A DNA stretch of 64,000 bases from Candidatus Poribacteria bacterium. Its GTDB lineage: Bacteria > Poribacteria > WGA-4E > WGA-3G. The notes beneath the pieces were generated by a model. That model ran no database searches. It worked only from the letters and a program-made list of their open reading frames with translations, and was not told where the DNA came from. Positions 10,788 through 25,629 of the stretch are shown piece after piece; within the stretch, counting starts at the first letter, position 1, and the number at the start of each line of letters is the position of its first letter. Location: assembly GCA_963663765.2 (NCBI GenBank), contig CAXXUA010000005.1, forward strand, positions 1,088,001 through 1,152,000, read 5' to 3'. Position numbers and translations under genes: made by a program.

Positions 10788-12524
10788 CTAATTGCTTCCG
10801 ATCAAACGTTGTGCTTTCATCTTACGTCTACGTTTCGATTTAGGTTTATTCTGTTTTGTTGTTGTAACTTTCTGAATATTATCCTGTGGCTGTGTAATTT
10901 CTTTTTCTGCAAGAACCTTCCTCTGCTGTTCTGCTTCATATTCTGCGTAAGTACCTTCAAAAAACTGTGTGGTTGTTCCCTGTTTGGTCATATCAAAAAT
11001 TAGCAGTTTCGTAGCAAGCCGATTTAAAAGAAAGCGATCATGAGAAATGATAAATAGCGTAGCAGGATAATCAGTAAGTGCATTTTCAAGTGCTTCCCGT
11101 GCTGGAATGTCCAAGTGGTTAGTTGGTTCATCAAGCAGAAACACATTTGCTTTTTGCAACAGCAATTTTGCCAATTGAACACGACTCTGTTCACCACCAC
11201 TCAAGTTACCAACCTGTTTGAATACATCATCTCCTGAAAACAGAAACTTCGCTAAATAACTTCGTATTTCAAACTGTGTATAATCTGGACAGAGTTGCCA
11301 AACTTCATCAAGCACATCGTTTTCAGGATTTAGACCCTCCAACTCTTGATTATAGTAACCGAACTTAAGCGTAGGACCCACCCACAACTCACCTTGAGTC
11401 GCTGTTTCCTGTCCCAAAATCATTCTGAAAAGAGTCGTTTTTCCTGTGCCGTTTGGTCCGATAATTCCGACAACATCCCCACGATTTACTTCAAAACTTA
11501 AGTCCGTGAATAACACCTTCTCACCGAACTGTTTGCTAATATTTTGACATCGTAAAATGTCGTCTCCACCACGCGTTTCCTGCTGGAAATCAAGTTTTAC
11601 CGTAGGTGCATCTGGTTTCGGCTTCTCAACTAACGCTACATTGTCCAATCTTTTTCGCCTTCCTTGTGCTTCTCGAGTGCGCTGACCTGCAATGTTACGA
11701 TCAATAAACTCTTTCTCTTGTGCAAGGAATGCCTGTTGCATCTTATACGCACGACTATCAACGACTTTCTCAATATTCTTGACTTCCAAGTACTTGGAAT
11801 AGTTACCACGATATATGCTTATCTTGTTTGCAGCGAGTTCCCATACCTTTCTAACGACCGTATCTAAGAAATACCTATCGTGAGAAACAACAAGAACAGC
11901 CCCCTTATATTCAGTGTTCAAATAGTTTTCTAACCATTCAATCCCATTGATGTCAAGATGGTTTGTGGGTTCATCAAAGAGTAATAGATCAGGTTCTTCA
12001 AGAAGAAGTTTCGCTAATGTTGCCCTACTTTTTTGACCACCACTCAGGACACGTACAGGCAAATTGAAGTCCTGTTCACTAAAACCTAATCCCCCAAGTA
12101 CACGATTTATACGATGTTCATAATCGTAACCACCAAGCCGCTCATGCATTTCTTGAATACGAGCATATTCCTGCATGAGTTGAGGGTTATCCCTGGTATC
12201 CATCTCCTCAACTAACATCAGCATCTTATCTTCAAGTGCTAACTGTTCCTCAAATACCTTGAGCATTTCCTGACGTAGCGTACAAGCACGTTCTAACTCA
12301 GGTTCTTGGCTTAAATAGCCAATTCGTCGTCCCTTTGCCAAAACGATATCCCCTGTAAAATCTGTTAGGATGCCACACATTATTTTGAGTAAGGTGGTTT
12401 TCCCACATCCGTTACGACCAATTAAACCTATACGGTCTCCTGGAGCAATCGCAATTGAAATATCGTCCAGTATTATGTCTGGATCATAACGTTTTGTGAT
12501 GTTACTTAAGGTTACTAAAGACAT
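10788..12524 (-). CDS. ABC-F family ATP-binding protein (Uup/YheS-like)
   Basis: Two ABC domains (GRNGCGKTT, LSGGQ, DEPTNHLD; GPNGTGKTT, LSGGE) and no TM segments. The real start is probably ATG 12524 because the longer ORF runs into the inserted element. Confidence 0.95.
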   Translation of the reverse strand: MSLVTLSNITKRYDPDIILDDISIAIAPGDRIGLIGRNGCGKTTLLKIMCGILTDFTGDIVLAKGRRIGYLSQEPELERACTLRQEMLKVFEEQLALEDKMLMLVEEMDTRDNPQLMQEYARIQEMHERLGGYDYEHRINRVLGGLGFSEQDFNLPVRVLSGGQKSRATLAKLLLEEPDLLLFDEPTNHLDINGIEWLENYLNTEYKGAVLVVSHDRYFLDTVVRKVWELAANKISIYRGNYSKYLEVKNIEKVVDSRAYKMQQAFLAQEKEFIDRNIAGQRTREAQGRRKRLDNVALVEKPKPDAPTVKLDFQQETRGGDDILRCQNISKQFGEKVLFTDLSFEVNRGDVVGIIGPNGTGKTTLFRMILGQETATQGELWVGPTLKFGYYNQELEGLNPENDVLDEVWQLCPDYTQFEIRSYLAKFLFSGDDVFKQVGNLSGGEQSRVQLAKLLLQKANVFLLDEPTNHLDIPAREALENALTDYPATLFIISHDRFLLNRLATKLLIFDMTKQGTTTQFFEGTYAEYEAEQQRKVLAEKEITQPQDNIQKVTTTKQNKPKSKRRRKMKAQRLIGSN

Positions 12525-12561
12525 TTTTTGTAGGTTAAAATTACTATAGTTTGGATATTTT

Positions 12562-12808
12562 TCATCTTGTAGAAGTTGATTATTCAACAGAACGTCTATT
12601 TTTCTACGAGTTTCGTATATTTATGAAACTGGAGAAAATGCTGCACTCCAGCGGAGTGCTATGTTTATAGAAAACGGACTATCCATATTCTTCCGCTCCA
12701 GCGGAGTGCTGTGTGCGACTGCAACATACCGCTCCGCTGGAGCGGAAGAATGTAACTATGTGCATGCTATAAACATACCGCTCCGCTGGAGCGAAAGATT
12801 AAGCATTC
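12562..12808 (+). repeat. Repeat block A (gctccagcggag REP hairpins), left copy
   Basis: Near-identical direct copy at about 24230-24474. Confidence 0.9.
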
Positions 12809-12821
12809 AAACTATATTATA

Positions 12822-13170
12822 CTATAGTTTCCTTGTTTTCGTCCAAACATTTCGGGATCCAGTTGATCAATGAGAGGTTATCAATCCCAGTCCCTATCTG
12901 ATTTCAAAAGGGATCGAAAGGTCTTAAATTACGATACCCTACCTTTGAAACCCTCATCATAATTGGGCACCAGCATTTTCAAGGCATCTTTGGTGTCGGA
13001 AAAAGCGATAAAAATCTTAGTTTTTGTTTCTTTTTTCTTTGAAAGGTCCGTCCAAGTTCTGTGCTACCTTTTGAGGTGTTATTTTCTCAATGCGGGTATG
13101 GGTTTGTGTGCGCTCATAGTTGGTATGGTTTTCCACATTCATAGGACAAAAACAAGGTAGTTTGGACAGT
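12822..13170 (+). repeat. Repeat block B (~350-bp MITE with ccttgttttcgtcc / ggacaaaaacaagg inverted ends), left copy
   Basis: Near-identical direct copy at about 23878-24224. Confidence 0.9.
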
Positions 13171-14038
13171 TTTCGTGTTTTCGTTTGTAAATGTTTTTTA
13201 CACCTTTCGCACCGCAGGTGCTGCCAATATTGACAAAAGAATTCTTTTTCTATGAGTTTCAGACAGTGTTGTAACTCAACGAAAATATATCAGAGATCAA
13301 AGTGGCAGTCCCAGAGGGATGGAATGTGTATAGATCATTACCAGTCCCACTCCAAGCCTCAGAGGGTCGAAATGTGTTTTAGCACGAGATTCAAAATGAA
13401 AATGAAAAGCATCGCGCCTAAAAAAACTGTCCAAACTCACGATAGAAAAGATATTTGAATACCGTTCACAAACACTGCAGGAATTGCTGAACTAAACCAG
13501 TAGCGTAATCAGAATCAAATACACAAATTTGTCCAATCTTATCTGCCATCTCCAAACAATTTCAGCATATTTCACGATTTTTTGTCTAAATTCCACAAAA
13601 TATTCTATTTTTCTCAAAATTAACTTGATTTTTTTTGCATAAGATAATATAATCATATAAAGTCAGATTTATATTATAAACTATGCAATAATATACTTAA
13701 TGATATTATATGGTTATGATTAGGTGGCATTGTAATCCATCAAAAACAAAGATTTGCAGTCAGTCAGTTAATATATTCTTAATGTTATATAGATTATCTA
13801 TGTGTTGCATGATTTCTAACTTAAGATTTACATTGTTGACAATTTTTGGTTAAGGAAATTTATTTACAGAGAAAATCAACTATCATCAACTAAAGAAACA
13901 TCACTATTGTCTTTGCGAGTGTTACTGTCTTGTTTGGTATTCAAGTGAATGGGCACAAGACAGAATCCCCCTAATCATCCAGTAAATTATTAGAGATTAC
14001 ATCCCATATATGGATACAACAAATAAAGGAGAACGGAT

Positions 14039-14632
14039 ATGATGACATAGATAAGAGACTTTTGGCGCTCCTTTGTACTCGGTGTATTCGGTGGACTCGT
14101 GTTGCTCTACATCGGACTCTTTATTTATAATGGACTGACCCAGAGCAAAACACCAGAAGTACTAGATGACGGCACCCACAACACCACAAAACCACCTCCA
14201 CCCGGTGCAGCACCTGGCGGACACTGGCACGGAGACGAATGGCACGATACACCTCACGACACAACGCCAAAAATCAAACGCGCGCGTACCAAGACAAATA
14301 CCCGCCAAAACCTTGTGTTGAAGAACAGTGGTCCTCCGCTTCCCATCACTTGTGCCATTTTACCACACCCCACACCCCTGCCAACACATCTTCAGGCACG
14401 TCTCAACCGGATATATCAGGAAATGATTATCGCAGGTACCCGGTATGAGGTGGTGGGTGGCGAAAACGTTATCACAGTGGAAGCCTATGAAAGAGAATAT
14501 GAGGTTCTCGTTGGCGATATGTTACCAGAGGACGCTGTAGTCTTCCTTGAAACACACGGAATCTATAATCCTCTCATTTTAGACAAGAAAGGGAAAATGC
14601 GTCTGTCCTGTCTTTATCTGTCTTGTCTTTAA
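14039..14632 (+). pseudogene. Degraded membrane-anchored 'GHWHGDEWH' motif protein
   Basis: RBS and ATG at 14039 are followed by an in-frame TAG at codon 4; the frame then continues through a TM segment and PPPPG..GGHWHGDEWH and ends abruptly just before the WD40 gene. Confidence 0.6.
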
Positions 14633-14647
14633 AAGGAGAACACTATA

Positions 14648-16580
14648 ATGAAATCCAAATTATTTTTAATTTTAGTCGTTTTGTTTACGATGCTTACATT
14701 TATACCCAACACCTTTGCCCAAAATTCACCACACTGGCATCTACCCGAAGGAGCCGTCCTGCGGCTTGGTAAAAGCGTAATTTACAATATTGAATATTCT
14801 CCGGATGGCACGCGTTTTGCGGTGTCTAGTGCTCTCGGCATTTGGCTCTACGACGCACAAACGGGTGAGGAACTTGACCTACTCACAGGACAAAAGGGCA
14901 TCATCTTGTGGGATGATGCGGACACAGGACAACACCTTCGCCCCGCCACACACATTCTGGAGATCGCAGAGCCTGGAAGGGACACTACTGTCGCGTTAAG
15001 TCCGGATGGAAAAACAATCGCAAGTAGCAGTGAAGATGATTTGGAAAATGGTAGATACACTATCCATCTGTGGGATGTGGACACAGGAAAACTCATCCGC
15101 ACCATTAGACAGGATCAGGACACGGGTCGCCCACTACCTATTCGATTCCTAGAATTTAGCCCGGATGGCAAAAAACTCGCAAGCTTCTATCACTGGCACA
15201 GCATCTTCATGGGGTACATTCTGTGGGACGTGGACACAGGCAAAAGAACAATTCTCAGGGCACCGCATAGTATAACGCATGTGATATATGGGAGTGTAAC
15301 ATTCAGTCCAGATAGCAAAACAGTCGCAAGCGAGTATCCATATTCGGACATCTATATCTGGGATACGAACACAGGAAAAATTCTCCACACGCTCACAGGG
15401 CGTACGGGTAGTACGGTCGATAGCGTCGAATTTAGCCCGGATGGCAAAAAAATCGCAAGCGGCGATTCCGATGGCACCCTCAAATTTTGGGACGCAGAAA
15501 CGGGCGAACATATCCGCACAATCAGAGGGCATAGGAGAGATGTCAATAGCGTTGCGTTCAGCCCAGATGGAAAAAAAATCGCAAGCAGCAGTAATGACGG
15601 CACCCTCAAATTTTGGGACGCAGAAACGGGAGAACATATCCGCACAATCAGAGGGCATACAATTTTTATTGAGAGTATCGCATTCAGTCCGGATGGAAAA
15701 AAAATCGCAAGCGGCGGTTACGACGAAAACATCAGCTTGTGGGACGCAGACACAGGAGAACTGCTCCACACCCTCACTGGGCATACGGGTTCCGTCGATA
15801 GCGTTGCGTTCAGCCCAGATGGAAAAAAAATCGCAAGCGGCAGTGGGGACGACACCATCCGCTTGTGGAACGCACACACGGGCGAACATCTCCGCACAAT
15901 CAGAGGGTATACGAGATATGTCAATAGCGTTGCGTTCAGCCCAGATGGAAAAAAAATCGCAAGCGGCAGTGGGGACGATACCATCCGCTTGTGGAACGCA
16001 GACACGGGCGAGCAGCTCCGCACACTCATTGGACATACGAGTTCTGTCTATAGCGTTGCGTTCAGCCCAGATGGAAAAAAAAATCGCAAGCGGCAGTCGG
16101 GACGATACCATCCGCTTGTGGAACGCAGACACGGGCGAGCAGCTCCACACCCTCACTGGGTATACGAATGATGTCTATAGCGTTGCGTTCAGCCCAGATG
16201 GAAAAAAAATCGCAAGTGGCAGTGGGGACATCCGTTTGCGGGACGGTACCGTCCGCTTGTGGGACGCAGACACAGGACAACATCTCCGCACAATCACGGG
16301 GCATACGGATAATGTCAATAGCGTTGCGTTCAGCCCAGATGGAGAAAAAATCGCAAGCGGAAGTTGGGATGGCACGGTGCTTTTGTGGGATATTACACCT
16401 TTACCACTGACTGAAGATGTAAACATGGACGGTGTTGTCAATATTCAGGATTTGGTGATTGTGGCAAATGCGTTTGGCGAAGCGGCACCGGATCTCAACG
16501 GTGATGGGATTGTAAATATTCAGGACTTGGTCATTGTTGCACAAGCATTTGGGAATACGGTTGCTGCCACTGAAGAATAG
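14648..16580 (+). pseudogene. Secreted WD40-dockerin protein 1, frameshifted at an A9 tract
   Basis: ORFs 14648-16171 and the 3' part of 15441-16580 join if A9 at 16075-16083 is A8 as in sister repeats; body nearly identical to 21577-23640. Confidence 0.85.
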
Positions 16581-16804
16581 AAGCTAAATATATAATCAGT
16601 CCCTACAACAGCACCGTGTAGGTAAGGTAGTGCTTGCGTAACCTATAAACGTAAATTTATTAGAGCGTATCTCATAAATCCAATTATTGGATTGTCCTCT
16701 ATCGTTAATATTGTAAGGGCGGGGTTTCCCCGCCCGTTGTATCTAAAATATTTATTTATGAGATAGGGTCTACTACGTTCAAATAAGCAAAGGAAACCAC
16801 TCTT

Positions 16805-18964
16805 ATGAAACCCAAATTATTTTTGATTTTAGTCGTTTTGTTTACGATGCTTACATTTATACCCAACACCTTTGCCCAAAGTTCACCACACTGGCATCTA
16901 CCCGAAGGATCCGTCCTGCGGCTTGGTAAAGGCAGAGTAACGGATATAGCATATTCTCCGGATGGCACGCGTTTGGCAGTGGCAAGTCCTGTCGGAATTT
17001 GGATTTACGACGCAGAAACTGATGAAGAACTTGACCTACTCAGAGGAGAAACAGAACCATTCTACTATTCATCCGTTGCGTTCAGCCCGGATGGGACGAA
17101 AATTGTAGGCGGAGGTTCGAGGTCTAACATTGATATGTGGGATGCAGACACAGGAAAACTCATCCGCACTATCACACACTTTCCGAATCCCACAGCACCT
17201 GGAAGTACGATACTTAGCGTTGCGTTCAGTCCGGATGGCAAAAAAATCGTAAGTTGTAGTAAGACGCCGTTGTATTTAGCATTTAATGAAAGACGCGCAT
17301 ACGCTATCCGTCTGTGGGATGCAGACACAGGAAAACTCATCCGCACCTTTGGGCAGCATCAGTATAATGTCTCATACATCGCGTTCAGCCCGGACGGAAA
17401 AACAATCCTCAGTGGCGCTACTGGATTTCTTGAGCAAGACATCATCGTTCTATGGGATGTGGACACAGGCACACAACTCTTCACAATCTCAACGTATGAT
17501 GCTGCCTTCCCTGTGTCTGATTTGAGCCCTCGTGTAAAATTCAGTTCGGATGGCAAAAAAATCGCAAGTGGGGATATTAACGTTTATATATGGGATGTAA
17601 ACACAAGACAACGCCGCATGCTATCAGGACATACGAAATATGTGAGGAGTCTCGCGTTCAGCCCAGATAACAACATCATCTCAAGTGGCAATGACGATGG
17701 TACCATCCGCTTGTGGGACACAGACACGGGAGAACCTCTCCGCACTCTCATTGGACATTTAGGGACTGTTTCGGGAATCGTGTTCAGCCCGGATGGAAAA
17801 ATAATCATAAGCCGCAGTTATGACGGCACCCTTAGATTCTGGGATGTGGACACGGGACAACAGATCCGGATGATCACAGACCATGCAAATTCTATCAAGA
17901 GTATCGCATTCAGCCCAGATGGAAAAAAAATCGCAAGTGGAGGTCATGATAGGTCCATCCGTCTGTGGGATACAGACACAGGAAAACTTATCCGTATGCT
18001 CACTGGGCATGCAAGTGGTGTCCTCACCGTTGTGTTCAGCCCAGATGGAAAAAAAATCGCAAGCGGCAGTTTTGATAACACCCTACGCTTGTGGGACGCA
18101 GAAACGGGACAACATCTTCGTACGTTCACAGAGCATGTAGGTGATATCGATAGTGTTGCGTTCAACCCAGATGGAAAAATAATCGCAAGTGGCAGCAGTT
18201 CCGGCACCTTCCGCTTGTGGGAAACAGAAACGGGACAACACATCCGCACTCTAACAGGAAATACGGGAGGACATACGGGGCGTATCTATAGTGTTGCGTT
18301 CAACCCAGATGGAAAAATAATCGCAAGTGGGGTAAGTGTTCCGGATTTCTCCATTCGCTTGTGGGTAGCAGAAACAGGAAAACACATCCACACCCTCACA
18401 GGGCATACTAGTACTGTCAGAAGCGTTGCGTTCAGCCCGGATGGAAAAAAAATCCTAAGTGGTAGTTGGGACAGAACGCTTCGTTTGTGGGACGCAGAAA
18501 CGACAGAACATCTCCGCACTCTAACAGGACATACGGGGCCTGTCTATAGTGTTGCGTTCAACCCAGATGGAAAAACAATCGCAAGTGGCAGCAGCGACGG
18601 CACCCTCCGCTTATGGGATACAGAAACGGGACAACATCTTCGTACGTTCACAGGGCATGCAGGTGATAGCGATGGCTTAACGCACATCGGCGTTGATATC
18701 TATAACGTTGCGTTCAGCCCAGATGGAGAAAAAATCGCAAGTGGCAGGGGTGATGGCACGGTGCTTTTGTGGGACTTTGCCTCTTTACCCCTGACTGAAG
18801 ATGTAAACATGGACGGTGTTGTCAATATTCAGGATTTGGTGATTGTGGCAAATGCGTTTGGCGAAGCGGCACCGGATCTCAACGGTGATGGGATTGTAAA
18901 TATTCAGGACTTGGTCATTGTTGCACAAGCATTTGGGAATACGGTTGCTGCCACTGAAGAATAG
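16805..18964 (+). CDS. Secreted WD40 beta-propeller protein 2 with C-terminal dockerin-like domain
   Basis: Signal peptide (TFA-Q), many WD40 repeats, 'DVNMDGVVNIQDLV..DLNGDGIVNIQDLV'. Confidence 0.92.
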   Translation: MKPKLFLILVVLFTMLTFIPNTFAQSSPHWHLPEGSVLRLGKGRVTDIAYSPDGTRLAVASPVGIWIYDAETDEELDLLRGETEPFYYSSVAFSPDGTKIVGGGSRSNIDMWDADTGKLIRTITHFPNPTAPGSTILSVAFSPDGKKIVSCSKTPLYLAFNERRAYAIRLWDADTGKLIRTFGQHQYNVSYIAFSPDGKTILSGATGFLEQDIIVLWDVDTGTQLFTISTYDAAFPVSDLSPRVKFSSDGKKIASGDINVYIWDVNTRQRRMLSGHTKYVRSLAFSPDNNIISSGNDDGTIRLWDTDTGEPLRTLIGHLGTVSGIVFSPDGKIIISRSYDGTLRFWDVDTGQQIRMITDHANSIKSIAFSPDGKKIASGGHDRSIRLWDTDTGKLIRMLTGHASGVLTVVFSPDGKKIASGSFDNTLRLWDAETGQHLRTFTEHVGDIDSVAFNPDGKIIASGSSSGTFRLWETETGQHIRTLTGNTGGHTGRIYSVAFNPDGKIIASGVSVPDFSIRLWVAETGKHIHTLTGHTSTVRSVAFSPDGKKILSGSWDRTLRLWDAETTEHLRTLTGHTGPVYSVAFNPDGKTIASGSSDGTLRLWDTETGQHLRTFTGHAGDSDGLTHIGVDIYNVAFSPDGEKIASGRGDGTVLLWDFASLPLTEDVNMDGVVNIQDLVIVANAFGEAAPDLNGDGIVNIQDLVIVAQAFGNTVAATEE

Positions 18965-19235
18965 AAGCTAAATATATAATCAGTCCCTACAACAGCACCG
19001 TGTAGGTAAGGTAGTGCTTGCGTAACCTATAAACGTAAATTTATTAGAGCGTATCTCATAAATCCAATTGTTGGATTGTCCTCTATCGTTATTATCGTAG
19101 GGGCGGGGTTTCCCCGCCCGTTGTATCTAAAATATTTATTATCGTAGGGGCGGGGTTTCCCCGCCCGTTGTATCTAAAATATTTATTTATTAGATAGGGG
19201 CTACTACGTTCAAATAAGCAAAGGAGACCACTCTA

Positions 19236-21323
19236 ATGAAAATTTATTCATTTTTGTTTATAATCATTCTGGTTGTGTCACTTGCATTAACACTAAATTC
19301 CTATTCCCAAAGTTCATCGAACTGGCATCTACCCGAAGGAGCCGTCCTGCGGCTTGGTAAAGGCAGAGTAACGGATATAGCATATTCTCCGGATGGCACG
19401 CTTTTGGCAGTGGCAAGTCCTGTCGGAATTTGGATCTATGACGCAGAAACTGATGAAGAACTTGACCTGCTCATAGGACAAACAGGAACATCCTACTATT
19501 CATGCGTTACGTTCAGCCCGGATGGAACGAAAATTGTAGGCGGAGGCACGAGGTCTATCGATATGTGGAACACAGACACAAAACAACACATCCGCACCAT
19601 CTCACACATTCCGAATCTCACGGAGCCTGGGGGCACGGTATATAGCGTTGCATTCAGTCCGGATGGCAAAATCATTGCAAGTTCAGGGTTGCACGGCGAT
19701 CCAAGTAGATACGGACTCGCACACGCTATCCGTCTGTGGGATGTGGACACAGGACAACTCATCCGTACACTCATTGGGGTGCGTCTGAATTATCTCACAA
19801 TCTTAGACCTTGTATTCAGTCCGGACGGCAAAAAAATCGCAGGTCGCACTGGAAGAACCGACACTCCGCACGTCATTCTGTGGGATTTGGACACAGGCAC
19901 AGAAACCTATCTGTATTGGCAGTCCTTCTTTGTAGCATTCAGTCCAGATGGAAAAAAAATCGCAGGTGGCTATGGGCCCATTTTTATATGGAATATGGAC
20001 ACAGCACAACGCCGCTTGCTCTCAGGGAATTACGGTATGATCAATAGCGTAGCGTTTAGTCCGGATGGAAAAATAATCGCAGGTGCCAGTTATGATAAAA
20101 CCATCCGGTTGTGGGACGCAGATACGGAAGAACACATCCGCACCCTCACAGGACATAGGAGTTCTGTCCGTAGCGTTGCGTTCAGCCCAGATGGAAAAAA
20201 AATCGTGACCCACAGTTTATACGGCGAAATCAAGTTTTGGAATGTGAACACGGGACAACTTCTCCGGACAATTGCTGGCCATTCACCTATTATTCAGAGT
20301 ATCGCATTCAGCCTAGATGGTAATGTCATCGCAAGTGGCGGTGGCGACGAAACTATTCGCTTGTGGAAGACAGAAACAGGAGAACACATCCACACCCTAA
20401 CAGGACATACGGCGGGTGTCACCAGCGTCGCGTTCAGTCCAGATGAGAAAATAATCGCAAGCGGCAGTTATGATAACACCATCCGTTTGTGGGACGCAGA
20501 CACAGGAGAACACCTCCACACCCTCACTGGGCATACAAATGATGTTTATAGCGTTGCGTTCAGCCCAGATGGAAAAAAAATCGCAAGCGGCGGTTGGGAC
20601 AAAAACATCAGCTTGTGGAACGCAGACACGGGCGAGCAGCTCCGCACACTCACTGGGCATACGAGTTCTGTCTATAGCGTTGCGTTCAGCCCAGATGGAA
20701 AAAAAATCGTAAGTGGGGAAAGCTTTCCGGATTACACCATTCGCTTGTGGGACGCAGAAACGGGAGAACCACTTCGCACTTCCCTCACGGGGCATAGGAG
20801 TACTGTCTATAGTGTTGCGTTCAACCCAGATGGAAAAAAAATCGTAAGTAGTAGTCGGGACAAGACTATCTGCTTGTGGGACGCAGAAACGATAGAACAT
20901 CTCCGCACTCTAAAAGGACATACGAGGCCTGTCTATAGTGTTGCGTTCAACCCAGATGGAAAAAAAATCGTAAGTGGCAGCTGGGACGGCACCGTTCGAG
21001 TGTGGGATACAGTAACGGGACAACAGCTCCGCATGTTCACGGGGCATAGGAGTTATGTGGAAAGTGTTGCGTTCAGCCCAGATGGAGAAAAAATCGCAAG
21101 TGGCAGCGGTGATGGCACGGTGCTATTGTGGGATTTTGCCTCTTTACCCCTGACTGAAGATGTCAATTCAGATGGTGTAGTGAATATTTTGGATTTGGTT
21201 GCTGTTGCGAACGCTTTTGGAGAAGCGGCACCGGATCTCAACGGCGATGGGATTGTCAACATTTTAGACTTGGTGATTGTTGCACAAGCATTTGGGAATA
21301 CGGTTGCTGTCACTGATGAATAG
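19236..21323 (+). CDS. Secreted WD40 beta-propeller protein 3 with C-terminal dockerin-like domain
   Basis: Signal peptide, WD40 repeats, duplicated dockerin Ca-binding motif. Confidence 0.92.
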   Translation: MKIYSFLFIIILVVSLALTLNSYSQSSSNWHLPEGAVLRLGKGRVTDIAYSPDGTLLAVASPVGIWIYDAETDEELDLLIGQTGTSYYSCVTFSPDGTKIVGGGTRSIDMWNTDTKQHIRTISHIPNLTEPGGTVYSVAFSPDGKIIASSGLHGDPSRYGLAHAIRLWDVDTGQLIRTLIGVRLNYLTILDLVFSPDGKKIAGRTGRTDTPHVILWDLDTGTETYLYWQSFFVAFSPDGKKIAGGYGPIFIWNMDTAQRRLLSGNYGMINSVAFSPDGKIIAGASYDKTIRLWDADTEEHIRTLTGHRSSVRSVAFSPDGKKIVTHSLYGEIKFWNVNTGQLLRTIAGHSPIIQSIAFSLDGNVIASGGGDETIRLWKTETGEHIHTLTGHTAGVTSVAFSPDEKIIASGSYDNTIRLWDADTGEHLHTLTGHTNDVYSVAFSPDGKKIASGGWDKNISLWNADTGEQLRTLTGHTSSVYSVAFSPDGKKIVSGESFPDYTIRLWDAETGEPLRTSLTGHRSTVYSVAFNPDGKKIVSSSRDKTICLWDAETIEHLRTLKGHTRPVYSVAFNPDGKKIVSGSWDGTVRVWDTVTGQQLRMFTGHRSYVESVAFSPDGEKIASGSGDGTVLLWDFASLPLTEDVNSDGVVNILDLVAVANAFGEAAPDLNGDGIVNILDLVIVAQAFGNTVAVTDE

Positions 21324-21576
21324 CACGTTTGATGCCACACGAAAAGTTAGTGTGGTTTCCCGACAAATACCATACACGGATTTAGCGGGAAACCGCACTT
21401 GATGTGTCATTTAACGTGCAGGATATTTGTGACACATTCTTTAGATTGTTTGGATAGATAACATCAAAAACACAAACTACGTGATTCGCATGTACCGTGT
21501 CATCCGCGCATCAATCAATACGAGATGTGTAATGCAATTTCTTTGCTTACTATTATTCAAAAGGAGAAAATGCACC

Positions 21577-23640
21577 ATGAACACTAAATCATTATTGATA
21601 TTAACTATTTTATTTACATTACTTCTCTTTACATTCACCGCAGACACCTTTGCCCAAAATTCACCACACTGGCATCTACCCGAAGGAGCCGTCCTGCGGC
21701 TTGGTAAAAGCGTAATTTACAATATTGAATATTCTCCGGATGGCACGCGTTTTGCGGTGTCTAGTGCTCTCGGCATTTGGCTCTACGACGCACAAACGGG
21801 TGAGGAACTTGACCTACTCACAGGGCAAAAGGGCATCATCTTGTGGGATGATGCGGACACAGGACAACACCTGCGCCCCGCCACACACATTCTGGAGATC
21901 GCAGAGCCTGGAAGGGGCACTACTGTCGCGTTAAGTCCGGATGGAAAAACAATCGCAAGTAGCAGTGAAGATGATTTGGAAAATGGTAGATACACTATCC
22001 ATCTGTGGGATGTGGACACAGGAAAACTCATCCGCACCATTAGACAGGATCAGGACACGGGTCGCCCACTACCTATTCGATTCCTAGAATTTAGCCCGGA
22101 TGGCAAAAAACTCGCAAGCTTCTATCACTGGCACAGCATCTTCATGGGGTACATTCTGTGGGACGTGGACACAGGCAAAAGAACAATTCTCAGGGCACCG
22201 CATAGTATAACGCATGTGATATATGGGAGTGTAACATTCAGTCCAGATAGCAAAACAGTCGCAAGCGAGTATCCATATTCGGACATCTATATCTGGGATA
22301 CGAACACAGGAAAAATTCTCCACACGCTCACAGGGCGTACGGGTAGTACGGTCGATAGCGTCGAATTTAGCCCGGACGGCAAAAAAATCGCAAGCGGCGA
22401 TTCCGATGGCACCCTCAAATTTTGGGACGCAGACACGGGCGAACATATCCGCACAATCAGAGGGCATAGGAGAGATGTCAATAGCGTTGCGTTCAGCCCA
22501 GATGGAAAAAAAATCGCAAGCAGCAGTAATGACGGCACCCTCAAATTTTGGGACGCAGAAACGGGAGAACATATCCGCACAATCAGAGGGCATACAATTT
22601 TTATTGAGAGTATCGCATTCAGTCCGGATGGAAAAAAAATCGCAAGCGGCGGTTACGACGAAAACATCAGCTTGTGGGACGCAGACACAGGAGAACTGCT
22701 CCACACCCTCACTGGGCATACGGGTTCCGTCGATAGCGTTGCGTTCAGCCCAGATGGAAAAAAAATCGCAAGCGGCGGTAGGGACGACACCATCCGCTTG
22801 TGGAACGCACACACGGGCGAACATCTCCGCACAATCAGAGGGTATACGAGATATGTCAATAGCGTTGCGTTCAGCCCAGATGGAAAAAAAATCGCAAGCG
22901 GCAGTGGGGACGATACCATCCGCTTGTGGAACGCAGACACGGGCGAGCAGCTCCGCACACTCACTGGGCATACGGGTTCTGTCTATAGCGTTGCGTTCAG
23001 CCCAGATGGAAAAAAAATCGCAAGCGGCAGTGGGGGCGATACCATCCGCTTGTGGAACGCAGACACGGGCGAGCAGCTCCGCACACTCATTGGACATACG
23101 AGTTCTGTCTATAGCGTTGCGTTCAGCCCAGATGGAAAAAAAATCGCAAGCGGCAGTCGGGACGATACCATCCGCTTGTGGAACGCAGACACGGGCGAGC
23201 AGCTCCACACCCTCACTGGGTATACGAATGATGTCTATAGCGTTGCGTTCAGCCCAGATGGAAAAAAAATCGCAAGTGGCAGTGGAGACATCCGTTTGCG
23301 GGACGGTACCGTCCGCTTGTGGGACGCAGACACAGGACAACATCTCCGCACAATCACGGGGCATACGGATAATGTCAATAGCGTTGCGTTCAGCCCAGAT
23401 GGAGAAAAAATCGCAAGCGGAAGTTGGGATGGCACGGTGCTTTTGTGGGATATTACACCTTTACCACTGACTGAAGATGTAAACATGGACGGTGTTGTCA
23501 ATATTCAGGATTTGTTGATTGTGGCAAATGCGTTTGGCGAAGCGGCACCGGATCTCAACGGCGATGGGATTGTCAACATTTTAGACTTGATGATTGTTGC
23601 ACAAGCATTTGGGAATACGGTTGTTGTAACTGATGAATAG
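21577..23640 (+). CDS. Secreted WD40 beta-propeller protein 4 with C-terminal dockerin-like domain
   Basis: AAGGAG RBS then ATG 21577; signal peptide; one more 42-aa repeat than protein 1. Confidence 0.92.
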   Translation: MNTKSLLILTILFTLLLFTFTADTFAQNSPHWHLPEGAVLRLGKSVIYNIEYSPDGTRFAVSSALGIWLYDAQTGEELDLLTGQKGIILWDDADTGQHLRPATHILEIAEPGRGTTVALSPDGKTIASSSEDDLENGRYTIHLWDVDTGKLIRTIRQDQDTGRPLPIRFLEFSPDGKKLASFYHWHSIFMGYILWDVDTGKRTILRAPHSITHVIYGSVTFSPDSKTVASEYPYSDIYIWDTNTGKILHTLTGRTGSTVDSVEFSPDGKKIASGDSDGTLKFWDADTGEHIRTIRGHRRDVNSVAFSPDGKKIASSSNDGTLKFWDAETGEHIRTIRGHTIFIESIAFSPDGKKIASGGYDENISLWDADTGELLHTLTGHTGSVDSVAFSPDGKKIASGGRDDTIRLWNAHTGEHLRTIRGYTRYVNSVAFSPDGKKIASGSGDDTIRLWNADTGEQLRTLTGHTGSVYSVAFSPDGKKIASGSGGDTIRLWNADTGEQLRTLIGHTSSVYSVAFSPDGKKIASGSRDDTIRLWNADTGEQLHTLTGYTNDVYSVAFSPDGKKIASGSGDIRLRDGTVRLWDADTGQHLRTITGHTDNVNSVAFSPDGEKIASGSWDGTVLLWDITPLPLTEDVNMDGVVNIQDLLIVANAFGEAAPDLNGDGIVNILDLMIVAQAFGNTVVVTDE

Positions 23641-23877
23641 CACGTTTGATGCCACACGAAAAGTTAGTGTGGTTTCCCGACAAATACCATACACGGATTT
23701 AGCGGGAAACCGCACTTGATGTGTTATTTAACGTGCAGGTTATTTGTGACACATTCTTTAGATTGTTTGGATAGAAAACATCAAAAACACAAACTACGTG
23801 ATCCGCATGTACCGTGTCATCCGCGCATCAATCAACACGAGATGTGTAATGAAATTTCTTTGCTTACTATTACTATA

Positions 23878-24474
23878 CTATAGTTTCCTTGTTTTCGTCC
23901 AAACATTTCGGGATCCAGTTGATCAATGAGAGGTTATCAATCCCAGTCCCTATTTGATTTCAAAAGGGATCGAAAGGTCTCAAGTTACGATACCCTACCT
24001 TTGAAACCCTCATCATAACTGGACACCAACATTTTCAAGGCATCTTTGTTGTCGGAAAAAGCGATAAAAATCGTAGTTTTTGTTTCCTTTTTCTTTGAAA
24101 GGTCCGTCCAAGTTCTGTGCTACCTTTTGAGGTGTTATTTTCTCAATGCGGGTATGGGTTTGTGTGCGCTCATAGTTGGTATGATTTTCTACATTCATTG
24201 GACAAAAACAAGGTAGTTTGGACAATTTAGTCTTGTAGAAGTTGATTATTCAACAGAACGTCTATTTTTCTACGAGTTTCGTATATTTGTGAAACTGGAG
24301 AAAATGCTGCGCTCCAGCGGAGTGCTATGTTTATAGAAAACGGACTATCCATATTCTTGCGCTCCAGCGGAGTGCTATGTGCGGCTGCAACATACCGCTC
24401 CGCTGGAGCGCAAGAATGTAACTATGTGCATGCTATAAACATATCGCTCCGCTGGAGCGAAAGATTAAGCATTC
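23878..24474 (+). repeat. Repeat blocks B then A, right copies
   Basis: Direct copies of 12822-13170 and 12562-12808 in swapped order. Confidence 0.9.
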
Positions 24475-24705
24475 TAACTATAAGGGAATTGAATTTCAAA
24501 ACAATATGATGTCTCCGCGCAGCACGTTCAGGATTCTTGCACATACCGTTCCGCTGGAGCAAAGAAAGTTTCCGTTTTAGTCGTTGTGTCTTGATTTGGT
24601 AACATAAGCGGTGAACCAATTTCTTATCAATACATGTTTGAAAAAAAATGTCCAAACTATAGTAAAATTACTAATCTGTCAAAAATAAAGCAAAGCTTGC
24701 AGATT

Positions 24706-25629
24706 TTAGTTTATTGATTGCCAATTTGTAGCACGTATAATCATCTCATGATATGTATCTGCATGATGCACATCAGGATGCAAGATGTTGAACTGTCTAA
24801 ACCGCCAGAATGCTATAGCAATTGCTGCATAGTAGACATAGCAATCTAAACTGTCCCATTCAATGTCTGTCAAGGGACGTAACGTGTTATATGCATCAAA
24901 AAAACTGTGTAAAGAATTTAACTTCAACTCATGTTTATCAGTATAACAACACCCGATGATCGTCATGCCAACATCAATTAGAAATGTATCATGACATCCT
25001 TCCTCAAAGTCAAGTATCGCTACCATTTGGTCCTCATCAAAAAGGGTATTGTCTAAGAACACATCTCCGTGCAGCAGTCCTGTTGGAAGTGGTTTCTCTA
25101 ATTCAGGTACAATCCAATCAAGTTCTGATTGTAACCATATTACAAACGGATGGGTAGCAAATTCTGTAGTATGTACCTCTTTCAAAAAAGGTGTGATTTG
25201 TGCCATCCCCATCGGGAAACTTGGAAGTACATCAAGTGGTGGAATACAATGCAACTTTGCTAACGCTTCACCAATCAGTGATAATACACGCGGTGATGGT
25301 TTGGGTGTACTACCTGCTAAAAATGGATAGATCATTACGTAGTATTTTGAAGTTATATGGAGCACATCACCATTCTTCTTGATAATTGGGTACACTGTAG
25401 GGTAGGCATGTTCACGTAGATGTTCCAAGAGTGTGTTTTGTATCTGAAGTTCTTCAACACTTTTCTCATCACATATTTTCAAAAGATATACACCATCTGT
25501 TGTTGTCAATTTGTAGTTGCTGTTTCCAAATCCACCCGAAATTCCCTCACATTTGATCGGTATCCCGATTGCATAGTGTGATACTATATCCGCAAGTTCT
25601 TCAGTAGATGGGGTTGTGTATTGTGCCAT
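24706..25629 (-). CDS. thrB: Homoserine kinase type II (APH-like phosphotransferase)
   Basis: 'MAQYT', 'GISGGFGNSNY', 'LPTGLLHGDVFLDNTLF...ILDFE'. Confidence 0.8.
   Translation of the reverse strand: MAQYTTPSTEELADIVSHYAIGIPIKCEGISGGFGNSNYKLTTTDGVYLLKICDEKSVEELQIQNTLLEHLREHAYPTVYPIIKKNGDVLHITSKYYVMIYPFLAGSTPKPSPRVLSLIGEALAKLHCIPPLDVLPSFPMGMAQITPFLKEVHTTEFATHPFVIWLQSELDWIVPELEKPLPTGLLHGDVFLDNTLFDEDQMVAILDFEEGCHDTFLIDVGMTIIGCCYTDKHELKLNSLHSFFDAYNTLRPLTDIEWDSLDCYVYYAAIAIAFWRFRQFNILHPDVHHADTYHEMIIRATNWQSIN

Follow-up and report, generated by a model that had tools for sequence, protein, structure and literature searches.

We analysed a 64,000-nucleotide stretch of the genome of a Candidatus Poribacteria bacterium (assembly GCA_963663765.2, contig CAXXUA010000005.1, positions 1,088,001 to 1,152,000), called here the window, and found that it carries a 12,119-bp insertion, window 12544-24662, which is bounded by 14-bp terminal inverted repeats and flanked by an 8-bp target-site duplication. 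The element contains a cluster of genes for WD40-dockerin proteins and no transposase; in relatives the genes on either side of it lie next to each other, the same genome encodes an autonomous insertion sequence (IS) with matching ends, and a second composite of this kind is present on another contig. On balance, we take the element to be a non-autonomous composite transposon moved in trans, with two copies of one MITE (miniature inverted-repeat transposable element), the A blocks, as its arms.

The ends of the insertion and the site it occupies

On the left side the element is preceded by TAAAATTA (12536-12543) and begins with CTATAGTTTGGATA (12544-12557); on the right side it ends with TGTCCAAACTATAG (24649-24662), followed again by TAAAATTA (24663-24670). 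These ends and the identical flanking 8-mers had been proposed in a preliminary description of the DNA made from the sequence alone, and they were borne out; the outer pair was also found as inverted repeat I15. The right terminal repeat matches that of the 1,533-bp IS described below at all 14 positions. The features at the limits of the element are as follows.

12536-12543, no strand: left 8-bp target-site duplication TAAAATTA, based on the inverted-repeat listing (I15) and the chance controls
12544-12557, plus strand: outer left terminal inverted repeat, matching the repeat of the 1,533-bp IS at 13 of 14 positions
24663-24670, no strand: right 8-bp target-site duplication TAAAATTA, based on the sequence and I15

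Several controls for chance were made. A perfect 8-mer was common to both sides in 3 of 1204 unrelated left/right end pairs (0.25%). When convergent repeat-like pairs lying 2.5-60 kb apart were examined, one of 1301 had a perfect flank repeat of 8-10 bp, and this was the window element. Similarly, pairs with exact 9-mer ends 2.5-40 kb apart had a flank repeat in 2 of 36 cases, the window element and the composite on contig C13 described below, and in 0 of 36 when the flanks were shifted. Chance does not explain the identity of the 8-mers at the ends of the window element, and the 8-bp length of the duplication is within the 8-10-bp range of the MITE family.

The element was originally described as lacking any transposase or integrase open reading frame (ORF), and the ORF list, Pfam and tblastn agree on this. 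Its ORFs of at least 80 amino acids (aa) are the WD40 genes, ORFs that overlap the WD40 genes on either strand, and a single ORF of 177 aa; Pfam found only WD40 and dockerin domains in the ORFs of the element, and tblastn of the element with the two transposases of the genome, one IS701-like and one IS1380-like, gave a best E of 0.95. An integrase-type genomic island was considered and rejected: no integrase or recombinase ORF was found within the element and no tRNA in window 8000-30000, and the ends are the inverted repeats of a DDE-type element.

The insertion separates two co-oriented genes.

10788-12524, minus strand: ABC-F ATPase gene (EttA/Uup-like), downstream of the insertion; Pfam ABC_tran (twice) and ABC_tran_Xtn
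24706-25629, minus strand: homoserine-kinase-like APH-family kinase gene, upstream of the insertion; Pfam APH

The ABC-F protein scored 452 bits with the NCBIfam model ribo_prot_ABC_F (cut-off 380). The kinase gene had previously been called thrB, a name that we do not retain, as its product scored 158 and 133 bits with the NCBIfam homoserine kinase models, under their cut-offs of 271 and 256. When 12544-24670 is taken out of the window, 54 bp are left between the kinase stop (24706) and the ABC-F ATG (12524), in agreement with the restored junction of about 55 bp noted before. We searched 40 relatives for this junction; the kinase was present in 24, all of the same genus, and 19 loci were compared. 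The empty junction suggested as a check was indeed found in relatives: the ABC-F gene directly follows the kinase gene in 17 of the 19 loci, with a spacer of 39-248 bp (39-76 bp in 11 of the 17), and the window element is therefore a derived insertion at a junction that is intact in relatives. In the closest relative, G016 (kinase 84% and ABC-F 94% identical), one TAATTTTTA-type site lies just upstream of ABC-F. The two exceptions, G022 with ABC-F 23 kb away in the opposite orientation and G012 with ABC-F on a different contig from the kinase, are rearrangements, neither empty nor filled sites.

The empty sites refute the explanation in which this locus had the WD40-dockerin genes from the start and two MITEs were inserted independently on either side of them. 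The MITE family is numerous and TAAAATTA-like targets are preferred, as this explanation would need; however, the flanking genes are adjacent without the cargo in these 17 loci, neither arm has a duplication pair of its own, and the frequency of chance 8-mer identity is the low one given above, so that we give it practically no credence.

It is also very unlikely that the A/B duplication described below, or the whole insertion, is an assembly artefact produced by misjoined repeats. The genome is rich in repeats, and the check was made with short-read contigs, none of those listed covering the whole region. Nevertheless, Logan contigs of runs X2, X3 and X4, which come from two studies and one of which may be the source sample of the assembly, cover 11900-12576 (or 12588) and 24601-25300 with 0 differences, so both outer junctions are present in contigs of three runs. 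In addition, the members of the A pair and of the B pair each differ at 3-4% of positions, which means that they are not collapsed or copied reads, and the assembled contig is 1.8 Mb long.

Reads across an empty site had also been suggested as a check. The joint from 12543 to 24671 did not occur among the 15 of 134 joints listed in the contigs of four runs. A scan of metagenomes with the kinase protein gave one locus, at 75% identity, and no allele of the same species. The fourth run, X1 (a 2016 sponge metagenome), represents a divergent strain and gives no information at the junctions. Its contigs for parts of the cargo (13693-14054 and 19640-20200) are 99-100% identical to the window, while those of the flanking genes diverge, by about 4% on the ABC-F side (25/624 at 11906-12529) and about 6% on the kinase side (24/406 at 24895-25300). 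This contrast reflects either a mixture of strains or an element that is younger than the strains or was exchanged between them.

We also noticed other insertions at this junction. The spacer between kinase and ABC-F is 191-248 bp long in 6 of the 17 adjacent relatives, and four of these six (L005, L006, L013, L020) contain hairpin inserts, which in L005, L006 and L013 start with GTAGGAGC. The same type of hairpin adjoins the C13 composite (C13:50050-50110). The kinase gene of G022 has, about 2.6 kb downstream, a 304-bp MITE with the same ends as the window element (L038, G022:C1:2946000-2956778, positions 5437-5740). The kinase/ABC-F junction may be a recurrent target or breakpoint.

The MITE sequence that now lies between the two co-oriented genes is hairpin-rich and terminator-like, and because of this the insertion probably changes the transcription of ABC-F. 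The evidence for an outward promoter for ABC-F was insufficient, with 10 promoter-like sites against 7.4 ± 3.1 in shuffled sequences in one count and 8 against 3.5 ± 1.8 in the other.

The autonomous IS, the arms and a second composite

Two intact copies of an IS with the same ends, which had been put forward as something to look for, are present in the same genome, at C6:107581-109113 and C15:456583-458115. Each is 1,533 bp long, with perfect 14-bp terminal repeats, a 9-bp duplication and a single ORF of 429 aa. The protein matches Pfam DDE_5 and DDE_Tnp_1, both above their cut-offs, and reached 126.8 bits with NCBIfam NF033540 (cut-off 150); by these profiles it can be described as an IS701-like DDE transposase. 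At E <= 1e-10 it has 654 relatives, mainly unnamed metagenomic proteins.

The genome contains 140 matches to the 14-mer end with at most 2 mismatches, many of them by chance. On the basis of subterminal sequence the short elements form three types, A, C and D, and the MITEs have about 18-19 terminal bp in common with the IS and nothing more. The A- and C-type elements are MITEs in that they are 298-702 bp long, non-coding and present in dozens of copies. Perfect duplications were found around 8 of 22 candidate short pairs (8, 9 and 10 bp in 3, 4 and 1 pairs, respectively); all eight are AT-rich with the form T...TA, and one of them is again TAAAATTA. Almost without exception a TA lies next to the repeat; when this TA is assigned to the element, the direct repeat shrinks to 4-6 bp, which is closer to the IS701 family as described in ISfinder (about 1.4-1.55 kb, one ORF, duplication of 4-5 bp). 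Of 40 genomes of the genus, 38 contain the 16-mer end, with between 1 and 336 copies each, and the reversed control gave 0. The IS701-like IS/MITE superfamily is widespread in this Candidatus Poribacteria genus.

Within the window element the blocks follow each other in the order A-B...B-A on either side of the cargo, with every repeat in direct orientation, just as first described. The two A blocks (12560-12816 and 24226-24482, direct repeat D18) are 96% identical, and they belong to the following MITEs.

12544-12816, plus strand: left arm, truncated A-type MITE (variant A*), left repeat intact, its own right repeat absent
12822-13445, plus strand: C-type MITE of the same repeat superfamily, left repeat split by B, right repeat damaged by a 4-bp insertion
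24214-24662, plus strand: right arm, full A* MITE, 96% identical to the left arm, with derived characters in common

The right arm is made up of the inner part of a split left repeat, the A body, a unique 75-bp spacer, a tail and the intact right repeat at 24649-24662; the left arm ends 20 nt into the unique spacer, whereas the right arm continues through the tail to the outer right repeat. Because the two arms are each other's best match, the nearest other A copy in the genome being at most 88% identical to them, and because they have derived characters in common (including the start of the unique spacer) that are absent from five other A-type MITEs in the alignment, they are sister copies of one MITE variant, A*. 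The arms also differ by a compensatory pair, C:G against G:C, at 12693/12745 and 24359/24411, within a 28-nt hairpin of the MITE (I10, I13), which hints that the hairpin is maintained. As to the C-type MITE, positions 24-262 of X_left match C2:83129 and C5:1314779.

The search for other cargo flanked in this way, also proposed at the outset, led to a second composite, 10,877 bp long, at C13:39126-50002 (L002, 3126-14002; read from 50002 down to 39126). It is flanked by a perfect 10-bp direct repeat, TATAAAATTA, and its cargo, related to that of the window element, consists of a 504-aa gene of no known family, a gene for a 564-aa dockerin protein and a 737-aa WD40-dockerin gene. Two segments of the window recur here at 96% identity, the C-type MITE together with the cargo flank X (12966-14587) and segment Y (23641-23872). 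The genes flanking the C13 composite are adjacent in G016 and G003; in G016, moreover, the flanking sequence is uninterrupted and has the target once, exactly at the insertion point. Of the two ends that the duplication brings together, the left one belongs to a C-type MITE and the right one to a different element, and this pairing is explained only by transposition of the whole unit. Later insertions into the C13 composite were also seen: a 1.26-kb IS of which the genome has 11 copies, a short-repeat cluster with 250-366 BLAST matches per 100-bp bin genome-wide, and IS-B, an element described in the next section.

B elements in the terminal repeats and the origin of the composite

The B blocks are direct repeats as well (12815-13114 and 23871-24170, 97% identical, D17), and BLAST extends the match to about 13170 and 24226. 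Each contains an IS1380-like MITE.

12831-13157, plus strand: B-left, 327-bp IS1380-like MITE in the left repeat of the C-type MITE, with TAGTTT at 12825-12830 and 13158-13163
23887-24213, plus strand: B-right, IS1380-like MITE in the left repeat of the right arm, with TAGTTT at 23881-23886 and 24214-24219

The core of B has terminal repeats of its own, starting with CCTTG, and a 6-bp TAGTTT duplication around it; a 14-bp repeat of the IS701-like family is cut in two by each of these B cores, one half lying on either side. The genome has 10 full copies of B and 3 pieces, all in one orientation relative to the split repeat, and their hosts are at least four kinds of end (A-type left, A-type right, C-type left and D-type left). 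An autonomous partner with the same ends, IS-B, is 1,558 bp long and is found at C5:409529-411086 (L036) and C13:39129-40686. Its 471-aa transposase scored 114.6 bits with NF033539 (cut-off 180) and 32 with Pfam DDE_Tnp_1_4 (cut-off 34.7); being below the curated IS1380 cut-off, it is best named, on sequence grounds, IS1380-like.

The genome has 4,680 TAGTTT and 978 TAGTTTG sites, of which 47 are in the repeat context (about 5% of the TAGTTTG sites). In spite of this, 12 of the 13 B-type junctions genome-wide are inside the 14-bp repeat, and B-type elements occupy 12 of the 47 exact repeats, about a quarter. The B blocks are thus passengers outside the vehicle, site- and orientation-specific for TAGTTT in the 14-bp repeat, and the A-B...B-A symmetry is there because B targeted two internal repeats. 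Since the left arm is truncated and B splits the inner end of the right arm, the outermost pair is the only one that is intact and correctly oriented. In the C13 composite both terminal repeats are split, one by B and the other by IS-B.

These findings contradict one of the mechanisms offered at first, in which a B-cargo-B circle, formed by recombination between two B copies, integrated into a resident A-type MITE. The cargo does lie between two directly oriented B copies that are 97% identical, and the C13 paralog has B on both sides of related cargo. However, such an integration would leave A unduplicated, and each B has the halves of a split repeat on its two sides and its own TAGTTT duplication, which means that it was inserted into a repeat that was already there. 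B also has an autonomous partner and a target specificity of its own. Furthermore, the homology with C13 starts from the host MITE's outer end, and the duplication of the C13 element is of the IS701-like type. It seems most improbable to us that a circle was involved.

The composite transposon that we favour would have arisen as follows. The 429-aa DDE transposase of the 1,533-bp IS would act in trans on the outermost pair of ends, and the whole unit would be inserted at an AT-rich T...TA target in the 54-bp kinase/ABC-F spacer, with duplication of TAAAATTA; the B insertions would disable the internal ends of the composite. The insertion, its ends and duplication, the empty sites, the autonomous IS and the second composite are observed, whereas mobilisation in trans, the movement of 12.1 kb as one unit and the order of these events are what we infer. 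The original idea of a non-autonomous composite that moves genes thus stands as far as a transposase-free, MITE-ended insertion is concerned, and the C13 composite shows that such units move, but B as the boundary of the vehicle has to be given up.

Several points weigh against this reading. The transposase is 0.1 bit short of the cut-off of NCBIfam NF049999 transpos_IS701_3 (169.9 against 170 bits), and the action of the IS transposase on the MITE ends is a prediction. A same-species empty site or a lone MITE was found neither in the contigs of the four runs nor in the metagenome scan. In the genome, a second copy of the window element with other flanks was not found and the A* variant is limited to this site; for this reason the movement of the loaded unit is proposed by analogy with C13. 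If B was inserted before the C13 element moved, a split end must still function, and the tree of B leaves this undecided: in the alignment of the 13 copies and pieces, relationships are star-like within the subgroup, and inherited insertions are not separable from independent ones. Finally, where the left arm meets the C-type MITE (12817-12821) there is no duplication, and approximately 5 nt occur that the right arm lacks. Three explanations of this junction were tried, namely a duplication from a nested insertion, microhomology to B-right's flank and a complete but short MITE ('A-short') ending in an end-like motif, and none of them gave a clean fit.

Some of these features would be expected if a lone A* MITE had made the TAAAATTA duplication and 11.7 kb had been loaded into it in situ, remaining immobile since then. 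The loading could have proceeded through a nested C13-type composite with recombination between A copies, or through one homologous and one illegitimate joint. The outer repeats and the non-duplicated parts together make one ordinary A-type MITE of about 450 bp, and A* is at no other site in the genome. The right B/A joint lies in sequence common to A-type MITEs, and the left joint at 12817-12821 looks illegitimate. In addition, the first approximately 22 nt of the arms differ at about 5 positions, compared with 3-4% elsewhere, and from 12822 onwards the interior is similar to the C13 composite, in which the C-type MITE forms the left end. On the other hand, a 257-bp duplication of A would be needed, which has no straightforward mechanism. 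The sequence to the left of the C-type end does not line up with the A* of the right arm, and simple nesting with a duplication therefore does not match; in addition, the C13 element is an example of whole-unit transposition at this size. Loading in situ is the main rival to our reading, and we consider it possible but rather unlikely.

The cargo genes, comparison with known systems and significance

Between the arms, the composite carries the following cargo.

14099-14632, plus strand: 5' gene remnant, the 177-aa ORF, a truncated start of the 504-aa C13 gene; about 3 kb are missing after 14587
14648-16580, plus strand: WD40-dockerin gene 1, frameshifted at a nine-A run near 16073-16081
16805-18964, plus strand: WD40-dockerin gene 2, 719 aa, with a signal-peptide-like N-terminus; its paralog at C6:290690-292865 is 97.6% identical in DNA
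19236-21323, plus strand: WD40-dockerin gene 3, 695 aa, assigned by Pfam
21577-23640, plus strand: WD40-dockerin gene 4, probable ATG at 21577, ORF open from a GTG at 21481; Dockerin_1 E = 2.1e-12
23641-23872, plus strand: Y, a conserved 232-bp 3' flank of dockerin genes, found also at 21324-21555, C13:41331-41562 and C6:294773-295004

According to Pfam, the proteins consist of WD40 beta-propellers with a C-terminal type I dockerin, and all four WD40-dockerin genes have signal-peptide-like starts. The 177-aa remnant matched no Pfam or NCBIfam family. In gene 1, the sister repeat units have eight A where the run at 16073-16081 has nine, and the frameshift is either genuine, making gene 1 a pseudogene, or due to an assembly error in the homopolymer.

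WD40 regions number in the hundreds genome-wide (467 N-terminal tblastn loci and 44 dockerin matches), and close paralogs of the cargo are found at three loci only: the window, C13 and C6. At the C6 locus (C6:290690-299319, L037) the gene 2 paralog (97.6%) is accompanied by a relative of gene 4 (87.6%) and by Y, and two A-type MITEs in opposite orientation are interspersed among them; the one MITE checked there had no matching duplication. A partial match to segment X of the cargo flank (81-89%) was seen at C5:1354055-1355939.

Composite elements with arms of related kinds are well known. In the classical composite transposons Tn9, Tn10 and Tn5, sister elements form the arms, the outermost ends are used and the duplication surrounds the unit. 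The window element resembles them in its sister arms, in the probable use of its outermost ends and in the duplication around it; here, however, the arms are without transposase, one is truncated, and a foreign MITE splits the inner end of the other. Among plant elements, Pack-MULEs and cargo-carrying MITEs are likewise non-autonomous, with host gene sequences between terminal repeats. Unlike the window element, both are eukaryotic, usually capture gene fragments and depend on other transposase superfamilies.

Closer parallels come from bacteria. TIME-COMPs, composite units bounded by Tn3-derived MITEs, were captured experimentally in Pseudomonas, where the reported sizes of non-autonomous elements are 262-3892 bp (Szuplewska et al., 2014, PMC4133298; see also PMC13367494). 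The two systems are alike in the cargo between two transposase-less miniature elements, in mobilisation in trans by a related autonomous element (which we infer for the window element), in an AT-rich target and in a short duplication. They differ in the parent (an IS701-like DDE IS here, Tn3 there), the ends (14 bp against 38 bp), the duplication (8-10 bp against 5-6 bp) and the size (11-12 kb against 262-3892 bp for the non-autonomous elements captured there); in addition, the host here is the chromosome of an uncultured symbiont, and mobility here is deduced. Similarly, an Acinetobacter integron lies between two copies of a 439-bp MITE (PMC3934969). It too is a multi-kb gene array between MITE copies that was inserted together with them, as is probable for the window element; there, however, it is a plasmid integron with resistance genes, and here the genes are chromosomal and encode secreted repeat proteins.

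MITE-bounded composites are thus already known; new here are the IS701-like parent, the size of 11-12 kb, the cargo of secreted WD40/dockerin protein genes and the uncultured sponge symbiont that is the host. Also new is a second element, IS1380-like, which is aimed at the terminal repeat of the first family. Literature searches found nothing on Poribacteria with dockerin plus WD40; the one match for Poribacteria and dockerin concerned salt lakes, and the one for IS701, MITE and target site duplication concerned the Thermus mobilome.

Sponge symbionts, Poribacteria among them, have eukaryote-like repeat proteins in large families, and WD40 domains are reported to be highly abundant (PMC3909097). 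There is little documentation of how such families spread in a genome. In the present genome, two insertions of 11-12 kb, each with its target duplication and an empty site in a sister species, provide a concrete vehicle: transposase-less composites that have the ends of a resident IS. More tentatively, IS-B and MITE B could be site-specific hyperparasites of the IS701-like family which recognise and split its 14-bp repeat and so lock MITEs and cargo-bearing composites once they have landed, and such a system of loading, moving and locking may have spread clusters of genes for secreted dockerin and WD40 proteins to new chromosomal sites in Poribacteria.

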